Shown one piece after another: positions 13,250 through 63,661 of a DNA stretch of 64,000 nucleotides (positions within the stretch are counted from its first letter, which is position 1; every line of letters begins with the position of its first letter). The stretch lies in the IMG/VR virus record IMGVR_UViG_3300023179_008905, positions 1-64,000 of that record; one strand, written 5' to 3'. The notes beneath the pieces are model-generated. The model did not search any database and was not told where the DNA came from. It worked only from the letters and a program-made list of their open reading frames with translations. Origin of the DNA: a virus. Position numbers and translations under genes: made by a program.

Positions 13250-13265
13250 ATTAATAAATATTTAA

Positions 13266-14177
13266 ATGGCCGATATAACAGTTTCCCAGCTTACTAGAGG
13301 ACTGCCTCCGGTAAATGCTTTTATCCCTTTTTCTAATGGAACGACTACGCTTGCTGTTGCTCCTTCTGGGTTATTGGTTAATGCGGGTAAAGTTGGTATT
13401 AATACAGCAACACCAACGTCAGAATTAACACTTTCAAGATCTGTACAGCTTTCGGCTGATTCTATAGAGCTTAATGTTAGAAGCGGTATTACTGAAGGTA
13501 ATTTTGATGGAATAAAATTTACGCAAACCGCAGGTACTTATAATGAGCTCGCAGCTATAAGATGCAAGTATTTTAATAACGGGCAAACGGCATTAGAACT
13601 TTCAACAAGAGAAAATAATGGTGTAAACCTTAAGGTTGAGTCAATGCTTACTCTGGACCGTAATAACGGTAATGTCTTAAATCATGGTTTAATATTAAGT
13701 GGTAGCAGTTTATATAATCAAGGAAATAGTGCTTTTCCTGATAGTGGTGTTACAAGTCTAAATGTTGCTAGAGGGTGGACATATGGCTACAACGATGTTA
13801 CTGGAAACCTATCTTTTTACACTCATATACTATTACCTCCTGATTTTAATCAAAACAACTATCAAATGTTTTTATTAGAAATAAAAGGATATAATTTTAG
13901 AAGCGCTACAGCTCAACTTATAAATTTAATTGTAGGTGGTTACGTAACCCCAGTATCAAACGGTGGACCAATAAGAAATGTTTCCGCCTGGCAGGCATTA
14001 GGTGATTTTAATCCAACAGCATATTATAGCAGTACATATAATAGAGGGGTTGTGAGGTTTTACTTATCAAATGCTTACTATGCTTCTTTTGTAGTTAATT
14101 CCATATGTGTAGGTAATGGTAGAATTATTAAGCCTGGGGAACTACAAATCATTTATAGTTCCAGTGCAACATTATAA
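13266..14177 (+). CDS. Putative fibre/decoration protein (MAD-anchor family)
   Basis: GKVGINTATP tail-fibre repeat; N-terminus shared with 20776 and 21659; TAAATA 5 nt upstream. Confidence 0.65.
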   Translation: MADITVSQLTRGLPPVNAFIPFSNGTTTLAVAPSGLLVNAGKVGINTATPTSELTLSRSVQLSADSIELNVRSGITEGNFDGIKFTQTAGTYNELAAIRCKYFNNGQTALELSTRENNGVNLKVESMLTLDRNNGNVLNHGLILSGSSLYNQGNSAFPDSGVTSLNVARGWTYGYNDVTGNLSFYTHILLPPDFNQNNYQMFLLEIKGYNFRSATAQLINLIVGGYVTPVSNGGPIRNVSAWQALGDFNPTAYYSSTYNRGVVRFYLSNAYYASFVVNSICVGNGRIIKPGELQIIYSSSATL

Positions 14178-19045: not shown

Positions 19046-19092
19046 ATAGTAATGTTATATGAAACAAGCTTACAAATCAATAAATATTTAAA

Positions 19093-19752
19093 ATGGAAAC
19101 ATTTAAAGAATTTTATGATAAACCGGTCTTTGGAGTTACTGAGTTTGTTGACATCGATGGTGTGGGTCGTGTTAAAGCCAAAATTGATAGTGGTAACGAG
19201 GCCTTTAACGTCCTTCATGGGGTGGATGTCTCTGAAGATAGTGAAAGTGTATCTTTCACTACCGTAGATGGTAAACAAATCAAAGCACCTAAAGCAGGTG
19301 ACATTAAAATTCATATTGGAAGCGGAGTAAAAGAAGATAGACCTATAGTAAAATTGAATATAAAAATAAATGGAAAAGAATACAAAGATGTTCCTTTCAG
19401 TATTGCTGATCGTTCAGAAAATGAAGATCCTATTTTAGTTGGTGAGCCCTTTCTTAAGAAACTAAATGCGGTTATTGATGTTAACAAAGAATTACATGAA
19501 TCAACGCGTTACAATGTTATTGCTATTAATAAAAAAGATCCGTTGTCAAGAGAATGGATGAGACCGAGTTTTAGCGAAAAGGCCATTCGCCATATAGCTA
19601 ACAAACAGAAAACTTTAATTGTAAATCAACACGGAGGTCCTAAGTTTAAGGGAAAAGATATTCTAAAAATTTACAACCCACAAACAAAAAAACCTTTTAT
19701 AGTTTTTAAGAAAAAATTAAAATCTAAACCCTCTGAATCCGATACTCTGTAA
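19093..19752 (+). CDS. RimK-associated retropepsin-like protease
   Basis: AKIDSG, ADRS..EDPILVG; TAAATA 6 nt upstream. Confidence 0.75.
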   Translation: METFKEFYDKPVFGVTEFVDIDGVGRVKAKIDSGNEAFNVLHGVDVSEDSESVSFTTVDGKQIKAPKAGDIKIHIGSGVKEDRPIVKLNIKINGKEYKDVPFSIADRSENEDPILVGEPFLKKLNAVIDVNKELHESTRYNVIAINKKDPLSREWMRPSFSEKAIRHIANKQKTLIVNQHGGPKFKGKDILKIYNPQTKKPFIVFKKKLKSKPSESDTL

Positions 19753-24750: not shown

Positions 24751-25488
24751 TTAGATTTTTGGCTTAATTGTTGCTATTACTTTTACTATAAATTTAAGTA
24801 ATTTACTTCTAGTAATATCATCTTCTGTAAAATGAAAAACATGTATTCCGTGATCCTTACTATCTTGTGAATCGAAACCACCCATAATATTTTTAAATCC
24901 GGATTTTTGAATATCTGATTGCAAAGAATCTCCTATAACAAACAATTTACAATTTTTTCCAAACCTAGTTAAAATCGTAACTAATTCACTATGCTCTAAG
25001 TTTTGTGCTTCATCAACTATTACAACACTGTTTGCAAAAGTTGCACCTCTCAAGAAATTAACAGGCGTACATTTTAAGTATTCATTTTCAAATAACATAT
25101 TTGTTATTTGTTTACCTACTAATTCATCACATTTTTCTATTAATGGAATACTCCATGGCTTAAACTTATCGTCTACCTCACCAGGTAAGCTTCCTAGTTT
25201 ACGTGTAGCAGATTCTACTATACTCCTTATATAGATTATCTCATCTATCTTTTTTTCCTTTAACATAGACAAAGCAACATATGTTGCACAGTATGTTTTC
25301 GAAGAACCAGCAGGCCCGTCACAGAATATAATATGGGTATCGTCTTGAAAAGCCTTGTCTACAAAAGCTTTATGATGTTCATTAAAATGAAATTTCTGCT
25401 CTACTTTAAAATTCAGAAAAATATCTGATTTTATAAGCTTATTATCTTCGCGAGCAGCTTTTTTTAGCTGTCTGTCCTTCTTAGACAT
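24751..25488 (-). CDS. phoH: PhoH-like ATPase
   Basis: GPAGSSKT, FLRGATF, DEAQN, LTR.G, GD..QSD. Confidence 0.92.
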   Translation of the reverse strand: MSKKDRQLKKAAREDNKLIKSDIFLNFKVEQKFHFNEHHKAFVDKAFQDDTHIIFCDGPAGSSKTYCATYVALSMLKEKKIDEIIYIRSIVESATRKLGSLPGEVDDKFKPWSIPLIEKCDELVGKQITNMLFENEYLKCTPVNFLRGATFANSVVIVDEAQNLEHSELVTILTRFGKNCKLFVIGDSLQSDIQKSGFKNIMGGFDSQDSKDHGIHVFHFTEDDITRSKLLKFIVKVIATIKPKI

Positions 25489-25542
25489 CTGTAATTATTT
25501 ATTCTTGAATAGTAGCAGATATGTAATATAATATAAAAATTA

Positions 25543-27246: not shown

Positions 27247-28005
27247 TTAACTATTACCGCCAGTTAGAGCAGTTACATTTACCCATAGAGTAGAATTATA
27301 CAAGTACAGGAATCTCCAATAAGCCCTTACTGGGGCACCGCCAATCGGTATTACATATCCAAGATCTACATTAAAGTTTAAATTGTTACCGCTTTTTATA
27401 ATACTATCGTAAGGAATATAAGGTACGTAAAGAGATGATGTACCGAGCGTTATAGTAAATAAATCTGGTCTCTTAACAGCATTAATTGTAATATCAGAAA
27501 AATTATAAAAAAAGTTTGCAATAGTTATGAGACTACTCTTGTTAGTCGGTTGAATGTCTGTATAACCCCAAAATTCTACTACACGCTTGTAGAGCTGATT
27601 TTGATAAGCAGTTAAATTAGGAATTAAAGTTTGTGAAATATAAACGTAATCAGGAGATGCATTTTCTACATAATTAGCACTTGTAATTAAACCGCCGCTA
27701 AAGGTGAATCTATTATAATAATCATCTTGACCGGTAAATCCTAGCTCACTTTCTGTAACGTAAAGAGGTGAAGAAATGACCGAACTTGCAGAAACGGTAT
27801 CAAACCTTACATATTCACCTGTAAGGCTTCCGGGTAAAACTGTTTCACCATTAGGATTAGTTTTAACGACATTTAAATTTTCAAACGTTATAGTCTGGGT
27901 ACCATTTTCTGTTTGAAGAATAAAAAGATCGCTACCTAAAACTTCTTGAGATTTAGGTAAACTATTAATATTAACAAAATTACTATTGGATGTATTAATT
28001 GCCAT
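27247..28005 (-). CDS. Putative virion structural/fibre-associated protein
   Basis: TATAAATA upstream; INSLP...DLFILQT..GT..ITF anchor-like N-terminus; T/S/N-rich. Confidence 0.55.
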   Translation of the reverse strand: MAINTSNSNFVNINSLPKSQEVLGSDLFILQTENGTQTITFENLNVVKTNPNGETVLPGSLTGEYVRFDTVSASSVISSPLYVTESELGFTGQDDYYNRFTFSGGLITSANYVENASPDYVYISQTLIPNLTAYQNQLYKRVVEFWGYTDIQPTNKSSLITIANFFYNFSDITINAVKRPDLFTITLGTSSLYVPYIPYDSIIKSGNNLNFNVDLGYVIPIGGAPVRAYWRFLYLYNSTLWVNVTALTGGNS

Positions 28006-28037
28006 CGTTATTATTTATATTAAAATACAATTAATAT

Positions 28038-39143: not shown

Positions 39144-39844
39144 AGTTTAGTATTCTTGTCCCTACTAGAAAAAGAGTTAAGAATATAAAAAATTTAGTTC
39201 AGTCGGTATATTCTACAACTAAAAATCTTAACAATATAGAATTATTGTTTTATGTTGACAAAGATGACATTGAAACTCAAAATTTTTTTGATCAAGAGAA
39301 AGTAAAGCCTAGGTTTACACATCTTATATCTACAAAAGTTATTGTACAAGAAAGACAGCCTACATTTGGTGAAACAAATAATGTTCTCTATAGAGCTAGT
39401 ACAGGTGATATTATAATGATGGCTGCTGATGATGTATGCTTTAGGACACAAAATTGGGATGAAATTGTTGCTAGTGAATTTGAGAAATATCCCGATAATA
39501 TTGCTCTTGTTTTTGGTTATGATGGTATTCAGCCTCCTGGTACTTTAGCCACACACAGCTTTGTATCTAGAAAAGCTATAGATATATTAGGTTATGTTAC
39601 GCCAAGCGATTTTGGCTATAACTATGCTGATAATTGGATTACAGAAATCTATAGACAAGTCAATAGATTAATTTATATACCGGTATACTTTGAACATTGT
39701 CATTGGGGAATTGGGAAAGCTCCTTTTGATGAGACATATGAACGCGGCTCTCATGCACCGCATGATAACAGTATAAAAATTTGGGAAGATAAAGCTCGTT
39801 TAAATAGAGATATTGAACGTTTAAAATTACACATAAATAAATAA
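39140..39844 (+). CDS. GT2 glycosyltransferase
   Basis: SILVPTR.R, YVDKDD, AADD. Confidence 0.8.
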   Translation: MKFSILVPTRKRVKNIKNLVQSVYSTTKNLNNIELLFYVDKDDIETQNFFDQEKVKPRFTHLISTKVIVQERQPTFGETNNVLYRASTGDIIMMAADDVCFRTQNWDEIVASEFEKYPDNIALVFGYDGIQPPGTLATHSFVSRKAIDILGYVTPSDFGYNYADNWITEIYRQVNRLIYIPVYFEHCHWGIGKAPFDETYERGSHAPHDNSIKIWEDKARLNRDIERLKLHINK

Positions 39845-39846
39845 TA

Positions 39847-40599
39847 ATGCTTACTAAGCCTGTTCTTATTATAGGTGATTCCTGTAAAGATGCCTTTATA
39901 TATTGTAAGTGCGATAGATTATGTCCAGAAGCACCTGTACCTGTGCTCGATATTATAGAAAAAAGACATAACGGAGGGATGGCTATGAACGTATTTAAAA
40001 ATTTTAAAAAGCTCTATAAAAATGTAGAAATAGTTACTAATAAAAATTGGAGCAGGATTACAAAAACCAGATATATGGATATTAAAACAAACCATATGTT
40101 TATAAGAATAGATCATTGTGAAAATAATAACTTTACCTTTAAAAATATTAAAAATAAAATTAATTTTAAAAACTATTCAGCAGTAATAATAAGCGATTAT
40201 GACAAAGGATTTTTATCTACTGAAGATATTCAATATATTTCAAAAAATCATGAATTAACTTTTTTAGATACCAAAAAGATTCTCGGCGAATGGGCTAAAA
40301 ATATTACTTTTATTAAAATTAACAGAAACGAATTTGATATTTCTTTTGATTCAATAAAACATTTACCTAATATTTTAAATAAAATTATAAAAACTCTAGG
40401 TAAAGACGGTGCAGAATATAAAAATAAAGTCTACCCTGTAAAAGAGGTTGAAATAAAAGACTTATCTGGAGCTGGAGATACATTTATTGCCAGTCTCGTA
40501 TACGGCTATTTAACAACAAGAGATATAGAAAAATCTATTGAACTTGCAAATAACCACGCCACAATAGTAGTACAAAAAAGAGGCGTCACTACCATATAG
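39847..40599 (+). CDS. RfaE/HldE-like PfkB sugar kinase
   Basis: RLCPEAPVP, TKTR, ISDYDKG, DLSGAGDTF. Confidence 0.85.
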   Translation: MLTKPVLIIGDSCKDAFIYCKCDRLCPEAPVPVLDIIEKRHNGGMAMNVFKNFKKLYKNVEIVTNKNWSRITKTRYMDIKTNHMFIRIDHCENNNFTFKNIKNKINFKNYSAVIISDYDKGFLSTEDIQYISKNHELTFLDTKKILGEWAKNITFIKINRNEFDISFDSIKHLPNILNKIIKTLGKDGAEYKNKVYPVKEVEIKDLSGAGDTFIASLVYGYLTTRDIEKSIELANNHATIVVQKRGVTTI

Positions 40600-48794: not shown

Positions 48795-48824
48795 TAATAT
48801 ATTCTATTGATATAAATAATAGAT

Positions 48825-49901
48825 ATGGACTGTTTAGAAGTAACACCAATAACAGCGTTTCAGAGTACTAATCTAGCTAGTAAGATAGATACATTTACTA
48901 GACTTGGAGATAGAATAGTACGCGCTATGGGCGCACCTTTAATTAATTTAGAAATACATCATGATCAATTGTTTGAAAATATTTCTATTGCATGTGAGAT
49001 GTTTTCAAAATTTGCCGGCTATACAGAAGAAATTTTAGTTTTTGATTCAAATCTTTACATAGATAATGTAGGTGTTAGATTAGATCAGCTCTATACAGTA
49101 ACTCCTTATTTTAATAAAACTATAACTACAGCTTCAACAGTCTATGTTGCAAATAATTCATTACCTGCAAGTACATTCTCAACATCGCCTCTTCTATCTT
49201 CCGAATATAAAGATGGTATTTTTAAGAATCAAATATTAACTGAAACAAAATATCTAAGTGTTATTAATTTTGATGGTACATTAGCTATTAATTTTGCCCC
49301 TTCTAATTCTCAAGAACAGAAATTTGTTAACAGTTTTGATTATGATATTATGGATTATAGAAAAGTTATTGATGTAATAGATTTTGAAGAGGGTACTAGT
49401 ACTGGTGTTAATACTCTATTTACCATTGAGCAAACGCTTGCTCAACAAACATATTTTAGCTATGCAATGGGTAATTATGGGTTTGATTTAATAAGCTGGT
49501 ACGTTTTAAAAAATTGGTTAAAAGATAGGGAAAAACTTTTAGCAATTAGACGATATATTCAATTTGATGATAGAACACAATATTTAACTATGTACCCACC
49601 TCCTAGAACACCGGGATCAGGATCAAGGTTTTATGGGGTAGTAAATTGCTATGTTGAAAGGCGTTTAAGAGATATTATAAAAGAGCCTTGGGTATATCAA
49701 TATGCCCTTGCATTATCTAAGATTGCCATAGGTAATGTAAGAGGCAAGTACACCGGTACCACAATGTTTGGTGGTGGTCAAATTAATTATAATGATTTAC
49801 TAACTCAAGGATTAAGAGAAAAAGAAGAGCTAGAAAAAAAGCTATTCGAAGGTGCACCCGGGTTTGGTGATGCTTCACCACCTTCTTTCTTTGTTGGATA
49901 A
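48825..49901 (+). CDS. gp13: Neck protein (gp13-like)
   Basis: GAPLINLE, WVYQYALA..K...G..RGKY...GG.QIN. Confidence 0.82.
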   Translation: MDCLEVTPITAFQSTNLASKIDTFTRLGDRIVRAMGAPLINLEIHHDQLFENISIACEMFSKFAGYTEEILVFDSNLYIDNVGVRLDQLYTVTPYFNKTITTASTVYVANNSLPASTFSTSPLLSSEYKDGIFKNQILTETKYLSVINFDGTLAINFAPSNSQEQKFVNSFDYDIMDYRKVIDVIDFEEGTSTGVNTLFTIEQTLAQQTYFSYAMGNYGFDLISWYVLKNWLKDREKLLAIRRYIQFDDRTQYLTMYPPPRTPGSGSRFYGVVNCYVERRLRDIIKEPWVYQYALALSKIAIGNVRGKYTGTTMFGGGQINYNDLLTQGLREKEELEKKLFEGAPGFGDASPPSFFVG

Positions 49902-50917: not shown

Positions 50918-50948
50918 AAAATAATGGTTAAATTAAATAAATAATTAT

Positions 50949-51620
50949 ATGTCCTTTCGTCTACTCGTAGAAACACCTGCTCCAGAAGAGCAGTTTGAAT
51001 ATATTCTAGAGGAAAAAAATCCGAAAGAACCAGCTAAGCTTCATATTCAAGGTCCTTACATGATGTGTAACGAGGTTAATCGCAATCAACGCGTTTATGA
51101 AAAGACTGATATGGAGCGTGAAGTTAGCCGATATATTAAAGAAATGGTTAATACAAAGCGCGCTATGGGCGAATTAAATCACCCTGCTTCTGCAGAAGTA
51201 AATCTTGAAAGAGCTTGTCATATGGTTACAAATTTAAAAATGGAAGGTAATATTGTATATGGTAAATCGCAAGTGCTCTCTACTCCTATGGGACAGCTTG
51301 TTCGCTCTTTAATTAATGACGGGGTTAAAGTAGGAATGTCTAGTCGCGCACTAGGTAAGTTAAACGAAGAAACTGGTGGCGTTAACCGCGTAACTGATAT
51401 GAGGTTAGTAGCTATTGATTGCGTCGCTGATCCGTCGTGCCCTACTGCCTTTGTAAACGGTATTTTAGAGAGCAAACAATTTTTAGTTGCATCTAATGGT
51501 AAGCTTGAAGAAGTTTTTGATAGGTTAGAAAACTCAATATCTAATCTACCTCGTAAAGACGTACAAGGTTTTTTAAAAGAACAGATTTTGACGTTTTTTA
51601 AGTTTTTAAAGACGTCATAA
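50949..51620 (+). CDS. gp21: Prohead protease (gp21)
   Basis: NRNQRVY, GELNHP, GMSSRALG, DCVADPS. Confidence 0.95.
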   Translation: MSFRLLVETPAPEEQFEYILEEKNPKEPAKLHIQGPYMMCNEVNRNQRVYEKTDMEREVSRYIKEMVNTKRAMGELNHPASAEVNLERACHMVTNLKMEGNIVYGKSQVLSTPMGQLVRSLINDGVKVGMSSRALGKLNEETGGVNRVTDMRLVAIDCVADPSCPTAFVNGILESKQFLVASNGKLEEVFDRLENSISNLPRKDVQGFLKEQILTFFKFLKTS

Positions 51621-54820: not shown

Positions 54821-55735
54821 TTACTGTCTTACCGTCTTAGTAAAATACTTAAACTCGTCTATTAAAGCCGTATCTAATAAGCTATAGTTACTAGCTCTTG
54901 TTGGATTAATATCGATACCACCACGTCTTACATATAGACAACTTACTACAAGCTCTTCTGGTTTAAACAATCTAAACAACCGCATATAAATTGTCTCACA
55001 AATCTCTTCATGAAAATGACATTCATCTCTAAATGAGACAATATACTGTAAAAGAGATGTCTGATTAATCTCATACTTTCCTTTATAATGAATATAAACA
55101 TCGCCCCAATCAGGTTGTGAAGTTACCCTACAATTACTTTTTAATAAAGCAGAATGAAATCTTTGTACTCTAGATTCAGGGATCTTTATTGCAGATAAAA
55201 TAGAAGGATCCTCAGTATATGATTTAGATTGTATCATTGTAACATCAATATTATTTTCTAATGTAGGGTAGTCTTTATTCGAAAACACCGGGGGATAATA
55301 CAAATCATCCGATACTGCTGCAGCAGATCTTACATAGACCTTCACATCTGTTTCCAAAAGATTAGATAGATCTCTTGCAATTGTATTTTGCAATTCATTT
55401 AAAACTTGAATCATATTACCTTTAAATACTTGCATGTTAAAAGAATTCATATATAGCTTAATAGATTTTGATTCAACTATATAATGGTTTTTACAAGGAT
55501 AAACAATTTTAGCTATAGCGGCTATAGGCATTCCTTCTGCAGTCAGGCACGATACTTCATATGCATTCCAAATATCATAACCACCAAACGGGGCGTTTTC
55601 ATCAGTTATATCTAAATGCTTTCTATTATTAATTCTTGGTTCACGGACTAACAGAGAAGGGTCGTAAGTCGACTTATAACCAGTTACCTTACCTAAATGC
55701 TTTGAAATGTTACTATTATCTAATACCTTGTTCAT
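54821..55735 (-). CDS. queF: NADPH-dependent preQ0 reductase (bimodular QueF)
   Basis: D.WNAYE.S, VESKS.KLY.NS, SNCRVTSQPDWG, FHE, RRGGIDINP. Confidence 0.93.
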   Translation of the reverse strand: MNKVLDNSNISKHLGKVTGYKSTYDPSLLVREPRINNRKHLDITDENAPFGGYDIWNAYEVSCLTAEGMPIAAIAKIVYPCKNHYIVESKSIKLYMNSFNMQVFKGNMIQVLNELQNTIARDLSNLLETDVKVYVRSAAAVSDDLYYPPVFSNKDYPTLENNIDVTMIQSKSYTEDPSILSAIKIPESRVQRFHSALLKSNCRVTSQPDWGDVYIHYKGKYEINQTSLLQYIVSFRDECHFHEEICETIYMRLFRLFKPEELVVSCLYVRRGGIDINPTRASNYSLLDTALIDEFKYFTKTVRQ

Positions 55736-56484: not shown

Positions 56485-56832
56485 CTATTTACACCACTTT
56501 TTTCTTTTCACAATTTCAGCAATTATACAGTATACCGATGTATCACTAAATGCATCAAAGATAGGCTCATTAGCAGATTCAAACGTCTTCTTACGCAATA
56601 CTAAATTAATTAAACGCTGAATTTTATCGTTAAGTCGAACTACGATTGCAGAAATAGAGGCAATAATATCTTCTTTCTTGTGTAAATCAGATCCCAGGCT
56701 TATGTTGTGCGGCCCGTAATCAAATTGCTTCTTACAGAATGTTTCGTATTGCTCTTTTTGAATCTTTTTAAATTCCTCGCAAGTCTCAGGATACGTAGAC
56801 TCTACACTTTTAATATAATCTTCCGGGTTCAA
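56485..56832 (-). CDS. DUF1599-like nucleotide-modification-associated protein
   Basis: KQFDYG..NI, RLNDKIQRL, E.I.D...D..VY. Confidence 0.72.
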   Translation of the reverse strand: MNPEDYIKSVESTYPETCEEFKKIQKEQYETFCKKQFDYGPHNISLGSDLHKKEDIIASISAIVVRLNDKIQRLINLVLRKKTFESANEPIFDAFSDTSVYCIIAEIVKRKKWCK

Positions 56833-57800
56833 ATTCTTACTCCGTAACCAATCTTATTTAAATTAAGAGCATTTAAATTGCAACCCCCAGCATAGCTGAT
56901 TGCGCTCTGAAGATCTTGAGTTATTTCTAATAGCTTTTCATCGTAAGTAAATGAATCGGTTTCCATAAGCTTCATTGTACCTTCTATGTTCTTTTTATCA
57001 ATCTTATTATGTATACTAGCAGAACCGTAATACTGTTTATACCGTCTCCCGTTAGTATCTTTTACAACCGGTGCAGGGCTATCCGTACAAGCAGCAAATA
57101 TAGATCCGCACATAACCATACTAGCCCCAGCGACTAGCGCTTTAGCTATATCACCGTTGCAGCGAACTCCACCGTCTGCAATAATAGGTACATCAATATC
57201 TGAATTATAATTATTTGCACACTCCATAACGCAGCTAAACATAGGATATGTAAACCCGGTTTTGTCTTTAGTAGTACATGCATGACCACCACCGATACCA
57301 ACTTTAACTGCATCAGCACCTGCAAGGGCAAGATATTCAACACCTTTACGTGTAGCTACATTACCAGCTATTATCTTTGTTTCAGGTAGTTTATTTTTAA
57401 TAAACTTTACTTGGTCAGCAACTTTAGCATGATGCCCATGAGCCACATCAATTGTAATAAAATTTACTCTTAATTTATGTCGAGATATATTGTCAATTAA
57501 CGCTTTATCTTTTTCCTGTATCCCTACACTTATAGATACATAATTGAAAAAAGCTTCATTTGCATCTCTTACAAACGCAAAAATATCGTGATCAAACCGA
57601 TGCATAACATAAAAGTAATATTTCGAATCTAACGCTTGACAAATATCAAAATCTATGCAGCATTTCATATTTGCTGGGATAACTGGAAGACGAAAATTTT
57701 TATCTAAAAACTTTACCTCTGTACTAATTTCTGCCCTCGTCTTAACCGAATTAAAATTAGGCTTAAGAAAAACGTTTTCGTAATGCAGAGAAATGTCCAT
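56829..57800 (-). CDS. guaC: GMP reductase
   Basis: PANM, IDVAHGH, KVGIGGGHACTT, IIADGG, YYGSAS; no CBS domains. Confidence 0.88.
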   Translation of the reverse strand: MDISLHYENVFLKPNFNSVKTRAEISTEVKFLDKNFRLPVIPANMKCCIDFDICQALDSKYYFYVMHRFDHDIFAFVRDANEAFFNYVSISVGIQEKDKALIDNISRHKLRVNFITIDVAHGHHAKVADQVKFIKNKLPETKIIAGNVATRKGVEYLALAGADAVKVGIGGGHACTTKDKTGFTYPMFSCVMECANNYNSDIDVPIIADGGVRCNGDIAKALVAGASMVMCGSIFAACTDSPAPVVKDTNGRRYKQYYGSASIHNKIDKKNIEGTMKLMETDSFTYDEKLLEITQDLQSAISYAGGCNLNALNLNKIGYGVRI

Positions 57801-59215: not shown

Positions 59216-62065
59216 ATGAAGTATCCAAAATACTATGGTCATTATCTAGGTATTGTAGTTCAAAATAATGATCCTGATAAAAGGGGCAGAGTTAAGGTGT
59301 TTGTACCACATATCTCTCCAACTGTTTATAAGAAATGGAATGAAGCTGTAAAAGACAAGAAATTTAAATTTATAGGTAAAAACGTAGGTAGCGATATAAC
59401 AGATGTAACGGATGATTTAAAGAAAATTCTACCATGGGCAGAAATTGCAGCACCGCTGGCAGGTGAAAGTAGTAGCGGTAGATTTAATGCTTATAAAAAT
59501 ATTGGAACAATTAGTGATTCGAGTAGCTTAAGCGGTTCTATTTCTAATACACAAAACAGCGAGATAGATGTTTCAAAATTAGATTATTTTTCTCCAAATC
59601 TTGACAACATAGGTGAAAAGCCAGGTAATATATTTGATATATCCTACTACAAGCTGAAAGATGCGTTCAGCGTTCCAGCAGAAACAAATGTTAATAATGC
59701 TAATAAATTTAGCTATAATTATACACCAGAATGCTATAGTAACTGCGCGCGTGGTTCTTTTCCTCTTTTAAACGTAGGTTCTCACGTGTGGGTATTTTTT
59801 CATAATGGTGATGCTCTTAAGCCTATTGTTTTTGCTGCAGCATTTGGTACCGAAGATTGGAAAAGTATTTCAAATATTCCTACTACTAATGCAATAGAAC
59901 TATCTGCAGCAAAAAGCCCGGGTGTAGATTACCCCGGTGCTTATGAAAATAGAAGCTCTGTTTCTAGTCAAGAATACGATATTAATGTTGAAACTTATAG
60001 GAATAAATATGTAATTAATCAAAAAGGCGGTACTATATCATTTGTAAATACTGATAATAGAGAAGCTTTAAAACTAACACATTATTCTGGTTCATTTAAA
60101 GAGTTTAATAATTTTACTAATACAGAATTAGCTACTAATAATGATCAAAAATTAGTTTTAAATGATCAATTTTTAACTGTAAGAGGTTCCAGAAACGAGT
60201 ATACACAACTGGATTACGATAACGTTACTAAAGGAGATGTGTATAGAAAAATAGGAGATTTAAATAGAAATTTACATTTACAATGGAAATCTATAGTTCA
60301 AGAAATAGCTGATGTAAAACAATTATTTGATATTCAAAGAGCAGAAAAAGCGGTTTCTGAAAATGGCATGCTCTTAACGTCACCGCTTCAAACACAAGCT
60401 TCTGGTGGGTTTGATAACTGCCCTGTGTGTAATAAAAATATAAACTCTTATTTTTCAGTTAATAATTCATATAGTAATAATTTTAATTTAAAGCTTTTTC
60501 CAAGTCTAGCTGATAGCGGTGGTAATTATATATTTGGTAATACGCTAACACCAGATGGTATAATGGGTAGCTTAGACTTTGTCGGCTCACTAGGCGCACC
60601 TCAATTTGGTCCCCCTACACAGGTTTTAGGTAATTCAGGTGATGGTTCTTCTGATCCTAATAAACCAGGAACTATATTTGGGGTTACTTGCCCTGCATGC
60701 GGTGGAACAGGAAAAAGCCCTAGTTCACTTGGTGGTAATTGGCCACCCGATCCTAAAAAACAAAATTTAAATAATTTAATTAAAAGTAAAATACAAGATC
60801 TTGCTAAAATAGAAAAAGATATGGGTCTAGGGGGTAGTGAGATTATAGAAATTACAAAACATAAAATAGAAACGATCGGCACAGTAATGAACGATTTTGG
60901 TAGCATAAGAGTAGATATGAAAGGTAAAATGTATATCTCAGATGTACAGGTGGGTAAATACGGAACATTTTATAATAGAAAACCTTCACCCCTCGTAGAG
61001 CTAGTACATGTAGATGATCTGCCTGGTGGTAATTATACTCTAAACGTTTGTAATAGATATAATGTAATGGTTGGAGCTGGAGGCTTAAATCTTAAATCTT
61101 ACGGACCAGTTAACATTAGTGGATCTCTTACTAACATTGCAGGCAAGCAAGTAAATATAGGTAGTGAACTAGAAACCAATATTGATGGTGGTCGTCGATT
61201 ATCTCTAGTTGCAGATATCATAAGCTTGAGGCAAAGAAACAAAGAGCAAGTAGTTGTAGAGGGGTCATTAGGAATTACAAATAATTTAATAGTAGCGGGC
61301 GGTCTGCACGTAGAAGGTGAGTTTACTGCTAACCACATTACTATGCCTACTGAAGTACAGGCTACGGAGGAGACAAATGTATTTGCTGCAGCTACAACAG
61401 ATGAGAGTAATATGAATGGTAAAATAATTGGATTTGCTGTTCCTCTATCAAATTATGCTACTGTTAAAAATGCTAAGGATAAATCATTTAAAGAAAACAC
61501 TAAAAAAGATACCGGAGCACCTTACTTAGGCTATACTGATGCATCAGTAGTCGCTGGTCGGCTTAAAAAAGATGAAAATATAGGTTATTTAAAATCTGGG
61601 CAAATTATAGGCTATATAAAGCAAACAGACATTGCATCTATAATTGCACCATCAACCGGTGGTGCGTGTTCCTCTACAGTAAACATTCCCATCTATTGCT
61701 CTACAAATATTGCAACAGATACAGATGTATCGGTAAAAGCATCTAGTACAGGTAGCTCTACCAACTCTAAGGACACGCCAGTATATGGATCAGGACCGGG
61801 TGGTAATGCAGATCTTGCAGGCGGTACAGTTAGAGGCAGTATTAAGGGTGCAGATACAGGCGCTGGTGGTAAAGATCCCATGCAAATGCCTATAGTCGTG
61901 TATGGTTCCGGTCGTGATAGAGATAGTATTTACGTAGAAAAACACTCGCACATGTTTAAAGGATTACCTTCTACTCTTACAAATACTAATGCACAGACTA
62001 GAGAAAAAATATCTGGCAAGCTAGCCCCACTAAATTCAGAAGTAGTTGCAAATTACAAGAAATAA
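59216..62065 (+). CDS. Baseplate hub/spike protein (gp5/VgrG OB-fold)
   Basis: YLGIVVQNNDPDKRGRVKVFVP, PWAE, GSHVWVFF..GD...P; beta-helix-like C-terminal part; HSH near the end. Confidence 0.75.
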   Translation: MKYPKYYGHYLGIVVQNNDPDKRGRVKVFVPHISPTVYKKWNEAVKDKKFKFIGKNVGSDITDVTDDLKKILPWAEIAAPLAGESSSGRFNAYKNIGTISDSSSLSGSISNTQNSEIDVSKLDYFSPNLDNIGEKPGNIFDISYYKLKDAFSVPAETNVNNANKFSYNYTPECYSNCARGSFPLLNVGSHVWVFFHNGDALKPIVFAAAFGTEDWKSISNIPTTNAIELSAAKSPGVDYPGAYENRSSVSSQEYDINVETYRNKYVINQKGGTISFVNTDNREALKLTHYSGSFKEFNNFTNTELATNNDQKLVLNDQFLTVRGSRNEYTQLDYDNVTKGDVYRKIGDLNRNLHLQWKSIVQEIADVKQLFDIQRAEKAVSENGMLLTSPLQTQASGGFDNCPVCNKNINSYFSVNNSYSNNFNLKLFPSLADSGGNYIFGNTLTPDGIMGSLDFVGSLGAPQFGPPTQVLGNSGDGSSDPNKPGTIFGVTCPACGGTGKSPSSLGGNWPPDPKKQNLNNLIKSKIQDLAKIEKDMGLGGSEIIEITKHKIETIGTVMNDFGSIRVDMKGKMYISDVQVGKYGTFYNRKPSPLVELVHVDDLPGGNYTLNVCNRYNVMVGAGGLNLKSYGPVNISGSLTNIAGKQVNIGSELETNIDGGRRLSLVADIISLRQRNKEQVVVEGSLGITNNLIVAGGLHVEGEFTANHITMPTEVQATEETNVFAAATTDESNMNGKIIGFAVPLSNYATVKNAKDKSFKENTKKDTGAPYLGYTDASVVAGRLKKDENIGYLKSGQIIGYIKQTDIASIIAPSTGGACSSTVNIPIYCSTNIATDTDVSVKASSTGSSTNSKDTPVYGSGPGGNADLAGGTVRGSIKGADTGAGGKDPMQMPIVVYGSGRDRDSIYVEKHSHMFKGLPSTLTNTNAQTREKISGKLAPLNSEVVANYKK

Positions 62066-62257
62066 TTATTTTTTGTTAAGCCAATCAGTTCTATGATGTG
62101 TAACCCAATCCATTAAGGCTCTCTCAAACCCCACATCATGTCCAGACCGCTCAGACATATACCATTTATTTCTTAAAATCTCTTCTCTTTCTTGAAGAAA
62201 TCTTTTATAAAGATCGGTATTTTTTAATTCTAAACTTGTAGATGACAGTGAATCCAT
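62066..62257 (-). CDS. Stand-alone DUF4032-like small protein
   Basis: EREEILRNKWYMSERSGHDVGFERALMDW; TAAATA upstream. Confidence 0.75.
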   Translation of the reverse strand: MDSLSSTSLELKNTDLYKRFLQEREEILRNKWYMSERSGHDVGFERALMDWVTHHRTDWLNKK

Positions 62258-62275
62258 TACTACAATATTTATTCT

Positions 62276-62339
62276 TACACTAGTAACCTTGCAATAAATT
62301 CAAGGTTCCCACCAACCCACCCCTAGTGTACGTCGTACA
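62276..62339 (-). other. Structured intergenic element: nested stems enclosing a G-tract run
   Basis: TACACTAG/CTAGTGTA outer stem, AACCTTG/CAAGGTT inner stem, and GGGGTGGGTTGGTGGG on the minus strand. Confidence 0.6.
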
Positions 62340-62360
62340 GTTGCTCCTTCTAAAATTTAT

Positions 62361-62588
62361 TTATTGTTGAGCGAGCTTATTTTTTAAATTATCAAATATA
62401 ATTTTTTTATCGTCTAATGCTTGAGCTTTAAGTACATCTATCATTCTTAAAACAACATCTAATCTAAGCATTTTTAAATAATCATATTTTATTTCTAAAC
62501 CGATACATGCAAGAAACCTTTCACAAATAAAAAATAAAACAGATAATTCTTCTTCAGTTAATTCTTTTAATGTATGGCTATAAATCAT
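62361..62588 (-). CDS. Hypothetical protein
   Basis: Start overlaps the 3' end of nrdB. Confidence 0.55.
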   Translation of the reverse strand: MIYSHTLKELTEEELSVLFFICERFLACIGLEIKYDYLKMLRLDVVLRMIDVLKAQALDDKKIIFDNLKNKLAQQ

Positions 62589-63649
62589 AGTTCAATATCT
62601 TCAAAAACACTTTCAGATATATTTGTATCTCTTGCACCTATCTTGTAAGTAGAGATTTCTGTCTCTTGTGGAGCAACCTGTACTTTGCTTGAATCAAGAT
62701 AACTATCTAACCATCCTGAAATTGGATTTTCTTTTTGATTAAATATCTTTTTATATCCTAAAGAACGCAACCGATTATCACACAACCATTTAGAATACCC
62801 TCCTAGAACTTCAGCGTTTAATCCTAGTAATGACCCTTTACTAAAAAGATATTGCGCCCATTCAATTTCATTTTTTGCGGCTTGCTCGTAGAATGCATAA
62901 ATTTTATCTTCACTTTTTTTAACAATAGATGCAAACCCTTCCTTATCTTCATCGCGTAAAATTTTTATTAAATTTTGTGTAATTGCAAAATGCTGAGCTT
63001 CATCACGTTGAATAAATTTTATAATCTTTGCATTACCTTCCATTTTACCGCGATATCCAAAATAAAAACTACAGGCAAAGCTTACATAAAATACTAACCC
63101 TTCCATAACATTTACGGATAAGATACAATCAAATATTTTTTGTTTTAAATCTTTCTTTGTATCGTCTCCTAAGATTTTATCAAAATTATTTCTAATTAAC
63201 TCTGCTCTACTTACAATATCTTTATCTTCCATTATACTATCAAAAAAATTAGATGCGTCCGGGTGTACATTATTTAAGAGGTAAGAATAACTATAACTAT
63301 GTATACCTTCAAACCGCTGCCATGTATTCATGCAAATCTCTAGTTCTGGGTTGCTCACATAATCTTTTAAAGAATGAATACTTCTAGATAGCATTGAATC
63401 TCCTAAAGTTTGAAATTTTAAGTTTGTATCAAATACAAACCGCTCTTCTCCTTTAAGCTCTCTATAATCTCCTCTATCTTTTTGAAGAGATATTTCATGA
63501 GGCCACCAAAAAAATTCTTCCTGTTTTTTAAACAATTCAAAGAACGTAGGGTATTTAAATTTATCGTATCTCTGTAAATTTAAATCTTCACCAAAAAAAA
63601 GAGGCTGTTTGGTGTGATCAATGTTTTTTATATTTAAAACAGACTTCAT
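62585..63649 (-). CDS. nrdB: Ribonucleotide reductase class Ia beta subunit
   Basis: FWWPHE, EGIHSYSY, EGLVFYVSF, RDEAQH, QVAPQETE. Confidence 0.96.
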   Translation of the reverse strand: MKSVLNIKNIDHTKQPLFFGEDLNLQRYDKFKYPTFFELFKKQEEFFWWPHEISLQKDRGDYRELKGEERFVFDTNLKFQTLGDSMLSRSIHSLKDYVSNPELEICMNTWQRFEGIHSYSYSYLLNNVHPDASNFFDSIMEDKDIVSRAELIRNNFDKILGDDTKKDLKQKIFDCILSVNVMEGLVFYVSFACSFYFGYRGKMEGNAKIIKFIQRDEAQHFAITQNLIKILRDEDKEGFASIVKKSEDKIYAFYEQAAKNEIEWAQYLFSKGSLLGLNAEVLGGYSKWLCDNRLRSLGYKKIFNQKENPISGWLDSYLDSSKVQVAPQETEISTYKIGARDTNISESVFEDIEL

Positions 63650-63661
63650 AAGGAGGTAATA

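Follow-up and report, generated by a model that had tools for sequence, protein, structure and literature searches.

The 64,000-nucleotide stretch of viral DNA analysed here (positions 1 to 64,000 of IMG/VR record IMGVR_UViG_3300023179_008905, referred to below as the window) contains on its minus strand, at 62350-62276 between the genes c4 and c0, a representative of a strongly conserved family of small RNAs, not catalogued before, from uncultured freshwater (lake) T4-like phages. The family comprises at least 55-57 distinct sequences in T4-like phage contigs, and its members share two covarying helices, P2 and P3, separated by a tract of eleven guanines that are identical in every copy. These features make it very probable that selection maintains the element as a structured RNA whose core is of the quadruplex type. 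The ordinary folding energy of the element in the window is not significant (z = -0.10 and +0.49), so the case rests on the comparison with its relatives.

The initial annotation of the window, made from its letters, had described two stems framing four G-tracts, with a small hairpin overlapping the outer stem, and all of these pieces are found in place, letter for letter, on the minus strand. Read in the 5′ to 3′ direction, the TAA stop codon of c4 (62363-62361) is overlapped by a TAAATA box (62363-62358) of the T4-late -10 type. The box is separated by a 7-nt spacer, AATTTTA, from the single-stranded heptamer GAAGGAG (62350-62344; family consensus GAAGGHG), the putative 5′ end of the RNA, which has no pairing partner in the window. 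The box and the heptamer are conserved parts that the initial annotation had not listed. A CAAC linker leads to the optional small hairpin P1 (TGTAC-GAC-GTACA, 62339-62327), the 3′ arm of which overlaps the 5′ arm of the outer stem P2 (TACACTAG, 62330-62323). Then follows the G tract GGGTGGGTTGGTGGG (62322-62308), with 11 guanines arranged as GGG-T-GGG-TT-GG-T-GGG, or GGGG-T-GGG-TT-GG-T-GGG (62323-62308) when the last G of the P2 5′ arm is included. It is proposed to form a three-layer parallel G-quadruplex minus one guanine. The inner stem P3 is a hairpin, AACCTTG-AATTTATTG-CAAGGTT (62307-62285, arms at 62307-62301 and 62291-62285), and is connected through a single unpaired nucleotide, the junction A (62284), to the 3′ arm of P2 (CTAGTGTA, 62283-62276), such that the 3′ side of the internal loop consists of the junction A only. 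Beyond P2 lie AGAA and, within 62271-62255, a second TAAATA box (62271-62266), the 8-nt spacer TTGTAGTA and the ATG of c0. The 16-mer G tract matches the window once, where 0.01 matches are expected, and no other G3-G3-G2-G3 run is present on either strand of this DNA, which has a GC content of 32.8%.

A scan of viral contigs for the exact 16-mer identified 43 loci, of which approximately 30 contain the complete architecture. As a control for bias, loci anchored on the downstream protein c0 (n = 80) were searched with a covariance model of P2 and P3; this gave 41 matches, many with changed G-tract spacers. A degenerate pattern scan and a second covariance model added further copies. The flanking proteins of the relatives are 17-61% (c4) and 46-65% (c0) identical to those of the window. 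Each genome, roughly 160-230 kb in size, contains one copy of the element, including a 229.7-kb genome rated 100% complete; secondary covariance-model matches in these genomes have E-values of 0.02-0.8 and lie in coding-like sequence. Searches of Rfam 15, which includes the preQ1, guanine/purine, 2′-dG-II, c-di-GMP and ZTP riboswitches and the known phage motifs, give no match with E ≤ 10 in 61900-62700, nor any match with E ≤ 1 that overlaps the element in five related loci. No relative is found among cultured phages with blastn of the locus and the element or with tblastn of c0. A pattern scan of bacterial and archaeal genomes gives at least 120 matches, and all of those listed are chance occurrences in GC-rich DNA, a result that does not in itself demonstrate absence. 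Among the matches listed in a metagenome scan, most are eukaryote-like GA-rich junk and seven are true copies, of the same kind as those already known. A description of a comparable natural motif was not found in literature searches.

The helices are preserved by compensatory exchange rather than by sequence. Over the 57 distinct rows of an alignment that was fitted to the model, and hence favours the structure, 97.8% of the cells in P2 and P3 are standard pairs and 11 of the 14 pairs are changed on both sides; the raw listings and a MAFFT-based count (17 sequences) agree with this picture. The covariation score is 0.769, compared with 0.188 ± 0.015 in shuffles, and pairing falls to 18-46% in a control in which the partners are slid by 1-3 columns. 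P2, which varies from 6 to 12 bp across the family, is paired in 98.6% of its cells, with five of eight pairs compensatory. For P3 the corresponding values are 96.8% and six of the six modelled pairs, and its loop is free in both sequence and length. About 17 different sequences are counted from the listing for the arms of P2, and about 17 likewise for P3. G-U pairs occupy 35 cells, against 17 for all other non-pairs. This excess assigns the fold to the G-rich strand, i.e., to the strand in which the flanking genes read in sense, and fits a folded RNA, or single-stranded DNA, of this strand. The junction A is invariant by construction of the parser, and the sequence ACT appears at this position in nearly all rows aligned by the covariance model; an AT-rich subgroup, with an Hsp20 gene downstream, is irregular here.

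In every copy the internal loop reads AG|GGG-H-GGG-H(1-2)-GG-H-GGG, and none of the 11 loop guanines varies. The spacers do vary. Among 55 copies, spacer 1 is T (42), C (11) or A (2), spacer 3 is T (46), C (8) or A (1), and spacer 2 occurs in seven variants (TT 25, A 11, AC 6, T 4, TA 4, AT 3 and TC 2). A guanine is never observed at any of these positions in any copy. When search patterns are used that permit a G in the spacers, the P2/P3 architecture is present in 37 of the 85 matches without such a G and in none of the 136 matches with one. Tracts 1, 2 and 4 are never shorter than three guanines, and tract 3 is always exactly GG. The additional 5′ guanine of tract 1 pairs with the opposite strand of P2 (GC in 53 copies, GU in two). 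All 55-57 copies match the canonical quadruplex pattern of four tracts of at least two guanines separated by 1-7 nucleotides, and, with quadruplex terms included, the minimum-energy fold calculated by ViennaRNA consists of P2, a G-quadruplex and P3 for 56 of 57 sequences, at a mean energy of -23.1 kcal/mol compared with -17.7 kcal/mol without these terms. Invariant guanines combined with variable, non-G loop letters fit the expectation for a G-quadruplex. In addition, the tract lengths of 3, 3, 2 and 3 amount to 4n-1 core guanines with one tract a single G short, i.e., the pattern of a G-vacancy quadruplex. Since no copy has a shortened tract 1, 2 or 4 or a lengthened tract 3, this pattern suggests three layers with one vacancy rather than a plain two-layer quadruplex. 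The earlier description of a structured element on the G-rich, gene-sense strand, containing four G-tracts of which one is short, is thus borne out by the covarying helices and by the constant tract lengths.

Other roles for the G tract were considered and discarded. A pairing between GGGUU and AACC proposed by RNAalifold is rejected, as the spacers and P3 vary without mutual covariation, and a fixed antisense target for the tract is ruled out by the variation of the spacers. An identical 16-mer, GGGGTGGGTTGGTGGG, is also present in another group of viral contigs (L026, 12493-12508; L043, minus strand; L044, 6754-6769). There it is flanked by a 10-bp hairpin on one side and two more hairpins on the other, and has neither an enclosing P2 nor a GAAGGAG heptamer; it may represent an unrelated quadruplex site or a distant variant.

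The 5′ part of the element is similarly constrained. The heptamer is GAAGGAG in 43 of 55 members, GAAGGCG in seven, GAAGGTG in four and GTAGGCG in one, and is located 8-21 nt 5′ of the AG that closes P2. A TAA(A/G)TA box is positioned approximately 5-7 nt 5′ of GAAGG in 52 of the 55 members, behind four different upstream genes (c4, c5, c7 and a GNAT gene). T4 late promoters are characterized by TATAAATA at -10. In the phage of the window, genes lack Shine-Dalgarno sequences, and TAAATA is found 5-7 nt before many ATG codons (18 sites versus 9.5 expected), for example at 13255-13268, 19081-19095, 39834-39849, 48813-48827 and 50938-50951, and on the minus strand at 25486-25501 and 28003-28017. 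With a T4-late-type -10 box at this distance, transcripts would start at or beside the ATG, which suggests that the late mRNAs of this phage are leaderless. By the same logic, since the box of the element matches both the T4 late arrangement and the box-to-ATG spacing of this phage, the RNA is taken to start at or beside GAAGG, and it probably has its own promoter. The box in front of c0 is a separate one, and reads TAAATAWT without variation in an alignment of 22 sequences. Elsewhere in the family, inspection of the flanks by eye reveals that the interval from the element to the start codon of the downstream gene contains a box belonging to that gene, which is late-like, sigma-70-like or MotA-box-like. 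In the 3′ flanks of loci L132, L136, L152, L222, L145 and L160, TAAATA is replaced by a sigma-70-like TTGACA-N17-TAnnnT or a T4 MotA-box-like TGCTT(T)A, which suggests that the downstream genes of these lineages belong to different temporal classes.

Alternative pairings occur in parts of the family. P1 is found in the long-linker members (37 of 55), 73% of which have a stem of at least 5 bp compared with 25% of shuffles, and it is built from 16 distinct arm pairs; its overlap with the 5′ arm of P2 is frequent, not universal. The short-linker members, about a third of the family, lack P1, and have a P2 of 10-11 bp and no alternative pairing. The initial annotation had proposed that the small hairpin competes with the outer stem as part of a switch. 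The overlap stands for many members, and the absence of P1 from about a third of them shows that such competition is not a general property. P0, in which GAAGGHG pairs with a CUCC or a U-rich sequence on the 3′ side, is significant in approximately 10-12 of 55 members, mainly in one clade in which a U run follows; as a general feature P0 is rejected. By eye, a U run is present within about 25 nt after P2 in most lineages. A further candidate was the sequence CCTCCTT directly 5′ of the nrdB start codon (63650-63656, minus strand), which is anti-Shine-Dalgarno-like and complementary to the AAGGAG of the element. This pairing is not conserved in relatives, and the complementarity is probably a coincidence.

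The window is part of a 76-kb contig from lake water, approximately 35% complete, that encodes a T4-type portal, major head protein, DNA polymerase, UvsX-like recombinase, gp46-like nuclease and gp5-like baseplate hub. In the lineage of the window the element follows nrdB, the small subunit of class Ia ribonucleotide reductase (62585-63649, minus strand; PF00268, E = 4.4e-53), and c4 (62361-62588, minus strand), an acidic protein of 75 amino acids without a Pfam or PHROG match that is the last gene of the nrdA-nrdB cluster. The upstream contexts in the family are nrdA-nrdB-c4, nrdB-c5, c13-c9-c7 and nrdA-c4-nrdB-GNAT, and in the c13-c9-c7 lineages the 3.5 kb upstream of the element are free of nrd genes. 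The original placement of the element at the end of the ribonucleotide reductase transcript therefore describes a frequent neighbourhood, and does not extend to these lineages; the promoter-like box before the element also speaks against it. The commonest downstream neighbour, in 44 of 54 loci, is c0 (62066-62257, minus strand), a protein of 63 amino acids with the motif KWYMSE..G.DVGFERAL.DW, of which KW..SE..G.D.GFE.AL.DW is invariant. It shows a weak match to the C-terminal part of DUF4032 in Pfam and a confident three-helix AF2 model; fold and sequence searches against the PDB gave no useful match. c0 is common in the lake T4-like clade, also in loci without the element, and its relatives in the Atlas are mostly labelled Verrucomicrobiota, a possible hint at the host.

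c0 follows the element either directly or after an inserted gene, i.e., c8, a DenV-like Pyr_excise protein or c16. In six loci a GMP-reductase-like gene follows c0, and in other lineages an Hsp20 or a metallophosphoesterase gene lies downstream. The lineage-specific insertions behind the element include this GMP-reductase-like gene (L015, 2436-3389, minus strand, and five other loci), the T4 DenV-like pyrimidine-dimer glycosylase (L145, 5875-6294, minus strand) and two unknown proteins of 150-167 amino acids, so that the site looks like a hot spot for gene gain. On its minus strand the window also encodes QueC (434-1066), the nitrile reductase QueF (54821-55735) and a protein of the IMPDH/GMP-reductase family (56829-57800), which together indicate a 7-deazaguanine (preQ1-type) pathway. 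A specific link between the element and this pathway is rejected, since QueC is present in five of five genomes with the element and in three of four without it. Moreover, 39 of the 80 c0 loci lack the element, some of them with identical synteny (nrdB-c4-c0 or c7-c0), and it was not found in two related genomes rated complete. Its absence from these genomes and loci identifies the element as an accessory module, and the variation of both flanks, the single copy and the patchy presence identify it as autonomous. No strict tie exists to nrdAB, to c0 or to the 7-deazaguanine pathway.

The explanation that is favoured here, with about an even chance of being correct, is that the element acts as a stand-alone small structured RNA, in which the quadruplex junction would serve as a binding platform and the 5′ GAAGGHG as a second functional element. 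According to this model a non-coding RNA gene of roughly 75-100 nt would be transcribed independently on the minus strand from the T4-late-type TAAATA box, some 5-7 nt upstream, with a start at or beside GAAGGAG. The RNA would fold into a rod, in which P2 is followed by the 14-15-nt guanine tract with P3 stacked on top. The tract would form a parallel three-layer G-quadruplex from tracts of 3, 3, 2 and 3 guanines, leaving one position vacant, with P2 below and P3 above the core. The three spacers and the junction A, which returns the chain to P2, would then constitute four propeller links of 1-2 nucleotides, the one formed by the junction A being a single nucleotide long. The quadruplex junction is taken as the working surface because it is the sole part of the fold that is constrained in sequence. 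It might bind a protein, or a small molecule of the guanine type that would occupy the vacancy, while the single-stranded GAAGGHG would provide a second recognition or effector element. In some lineages, P1 in competition with P2, and P0 with its U run, may modulate read-through into the next gene. A more specific proposal, that the RNA is a natural aptamer whose vacancy captures a guanine-containing metabolite, acting in the manner of a riboswitch or of a free decoy RNA, is put forward tentatively and is in our view rather doubtful. Candidate metabolites could be GTP or GMP, by which the RNA would read a guanine pool drained for 7-deazaguanine DNA, or a G-containing cyclic (di)nucleotide immune signal, for which it would be a sponge. 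The initial annotation had itself suggested that the element might sense guanine nucleotide pools or DNA modification.

Several observations weigh against the stand-alone RNA. The box is missing in three members (L136, L152 and L222), and, as it overlaps the upstream stop codon and consists of A/T-rich sequence, it could instead be part of the 3′ untranslated region. In the window no U run follows P2 and the next gene begins 18 nt later, so the RNA may simply be a leader. Among the sequencing runs listed with the element sequence one lake metagenome carries it and none is an RNA run, for which reason the transcript with its ends, and likewise the quadruplex, are predictions. With respect to the core, the ViennaRNA folds contain a two-layer quadruplex only, and the single argument for three layers with a vacancy is the invariance of the tract lengths. 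The patterns used for the initial collection fixed the guanines, which leaves as bias-free the 41 copies obtained through the c0 anchor and the covariance model; even for these, the covariance model itself scores guanines favourably. Finally, the analysis turned up neither a ligand nor a protein partner nor a base-pairing target; the one sequence considered as such a target, CCTCCTT before nrdB, is not conserved.

Of the alternatives that retain a role in gene expression, a cis-acting riboswitch would use the vacancy as an aptamer for GTP, GMP or guanine, or else for a 7-deazaguanine base or a cyclic dinucleotide containing G, and stabilization of P2 by the ligand (with P0 and the U run in some lineages), at the expense of P1, would decide on read-through to the downstream gene or genes. 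Such a mechanism is in line with the overlap of P1 and the 5′ arm of P2 in many members, with a P0 (GGAGCAGAT/ATCTGCTCC) and U run of terminator-like appearance in loci L141, L145, L156, L185, L206 and L217, with a same-strand gene that always begins within about 10-60 nt downstream, and with a conserved aptamer-like fold with covarying helices. The setting in nucleotide metabolism also agrees with it (nrdAB upstream, the GMP-reductase-like gene behind c0 in six loci, and QueF, QueC and a GMP-reductase-like protein in the phage), and recognition of a ligand within a tetrad is established for synthetic RNAs (PMC12718690). Both the aptamer and its switching are nevertheless judged unlikely, because in about one third of the members P1 is missing and P2, at 10-11 bp, is without any alternative pairing, and because P0 is significant in about 10-12 of 55 members and not in the window. 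The genes that would be regulated (c0, DenV-like, Hsp20, metallophosphoesterase and two unknowns) do not form a coherent set and have promoter-like boxes of their own 3′ of the element. Furthermore, c0 persists without the element in syntenic loci, and the distribution of QueC does not track it. Somewhat less probable again is a 3′-end element of the upstream operon (nrdA-nrdB-c4 and its equivalents), in which the stable rod would terminate transcription or block 3′-to-5′ exonucleases and so protect the message. Its position, about 10-25 nt after the stop codon in every context, is as expected for this role, a stretch rich in U comes after P2 in most lineages (immediately so in L137 and L214), no canonical GC-rich terminator was found in the AT-rich region 61900-62800, and dispensability is often true of terminators. 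However, terminators or roadblocks do not normally hold 11 guanines, a junction A and a 5′ heptamer constant at protein identities of 17-65%, the promoter-like box and GAAGGHG would be left unexplained, the U run of an intrinsic terminator is absent from the window and from the c5-type members, and one copy per roughly 160-230-kb genome contrasts with the many operon ends.

The two remaining explanations carry far less weight. R-loops form at G-rich non-template strands in ColE1 and at mitochondrial CSBII, and a G-rich non-template strand just past a promoter-like box would favour them. On this basis, and given the single copy per genome, the element might be a DNA-level site, namely a quadruplex or R-loop-prone replication origin, recombination site or packaging signal. 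This is very unlikely: the covariation uses G-U pairs of the G-rich strand only, and loops and stem letters are free while pairing is kept, which points to a folded single strand and not to a duplex DNA site. The 7-deazaguanine pathway of the phage could, moreover, take N7 from the guanines of its DNA. The element is absent from complete related genomes, which would be unexpected for an origin or packaging site, and the replication origin that had been offered as an alternative at the outset is considered unlikely. Hardly conceivable is a translational or guide function. The GAAGGAG of the window lies 22 nt before a GTG with the hairpin P1 in between, an arrangement that recalls the split ribosome-binding site of T4 gene 38, and tandem TGG codons follow the GTG, so that a leader peptide (a GUG-GGU-UGG-UGG mini open reading frame) can be imagined. 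In relatives, however, GTG is changed to GCG or GAG and TGG to CGG or AGG, insertions and deletions in spacer 2 and the P3 loop break the frame, and the genes of this phage do without Shine-Dalgarno sequences. A VIPR-type guide RNA comes to mind because the VIPR vrRNAs are G-rich phage RNAs. These consist of 9-16 tandem YNNGG repeats with hypervariable NN and a conserved 3′ tail, and are encoded next to vipr (RAMP-like) and vap genes (bioRxiv 10.64898/2026.04.26.720920). The element has four G tracts with spacers of 1, 1-2 and 1 nt and no 5-nt period, and its neighbours are nrdB, the 75-residue c4, the 63-residue three-helix protein c0 and a gp5-like hub.

Predicting RNA G-quadruplexes is straightforward, whereas proof that they are under selection is difficult to obtain. 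The present comparison provides the signature of selection directly, in the form of two freely covarying helices, eleven fixed guanines, spacers that avoid G and a third tract that is one G short. The natural use of G-quadruplexes, including vacancies as ligand pockets, which have so far been encountered in the products of in vitro selection (systematic evolution of ligands by exponential enrichment, SELEX) and in promoter DNA, thereby becomes testable with an RNA of 75 nt. To our knowledge, no catalogued bacterial or phage RNA family is defined by a G-quadruplex, and none came to light in the Rfam and literature searches. The element is a well-supported new family for Rfam-type catalogues, and would represent a new conserved non-coding gene in T4-like lake phages that modify guanines, a clade that is large and uncultured. 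If the vacancy does capture a metabolite, this would be the first natural RNA family with a vacancy G-quadruplex as its ligand pocket, and a natural counterpart of the laboratory-made G-quadruplex aptamers.

Comparison with known systems reveals partial likenesses. Like the guanine-family riboswitches (guanine, 2′-dG, preQ1-I/II/III, ppGpp/PRPP and c-di-GMP), the element is a small conserved structured RNA beside genes of nucleotide metabolism, with an enclosing helix, here P2, that could communicate with alternative pairings. Unlike the element, none of these riboswitches uses a G-quadruplex, and the element is associated with heterogeneous genes and in many members lacks an expression platform. 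Among phage RNAs, the species 1 and 2 RNAs of T4 (rnaC and rnaD) are small and stable, are encoded within the tRNA cluster and arise by processing of a precursor. The element resembles them in being short, highly structured, phage-encoded, non-coding, present in a single copy and dispensable in relatives; it has no similarity to them in sequence or structure, and differs in its promoter-like box and its quadruplex-type core. The fluorogenic aptamers Mango, Spinach and Corn likewise place a quadruplex in an internal or apical loop on flanking helices, with short connecting loops and little constraint beyond the guanines. They are artificial, however, bind planar dyes and have different junctions (GAAA-like in Mango, mixed tetrads in Spinach), and the GAAGG that the Mango core shares with the element is a coincidence of letters, since the copy in the element lies on the far side of P2. 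The closest parallels are the G-vacancy quadruplexes and the class V GTP aptamer, in which the guanine of the ligand is taken into a tetrad (PMC12718690). They share with the element the 4n-1 core guanines (11 here) and a quadruplex, in the element a predicted one, with Watson-Crick helices on both sides. In the known examples it is a free guanine nucleotide that completes the tetrad, whereas ligand binding by the phage element is hypothetical; and those examples are synthetic RNAs or eukaryotic promoter DNA, whereas the element belongs to a natural, conserved family of phage RNAs. The architecture differs as well: the class V aptamer assembles a two-layer quadruplex from two bulges with an 8-bp helix between them, while the guanines of the phage element all lie in one strand of 14-15 nt within a single internal loop.

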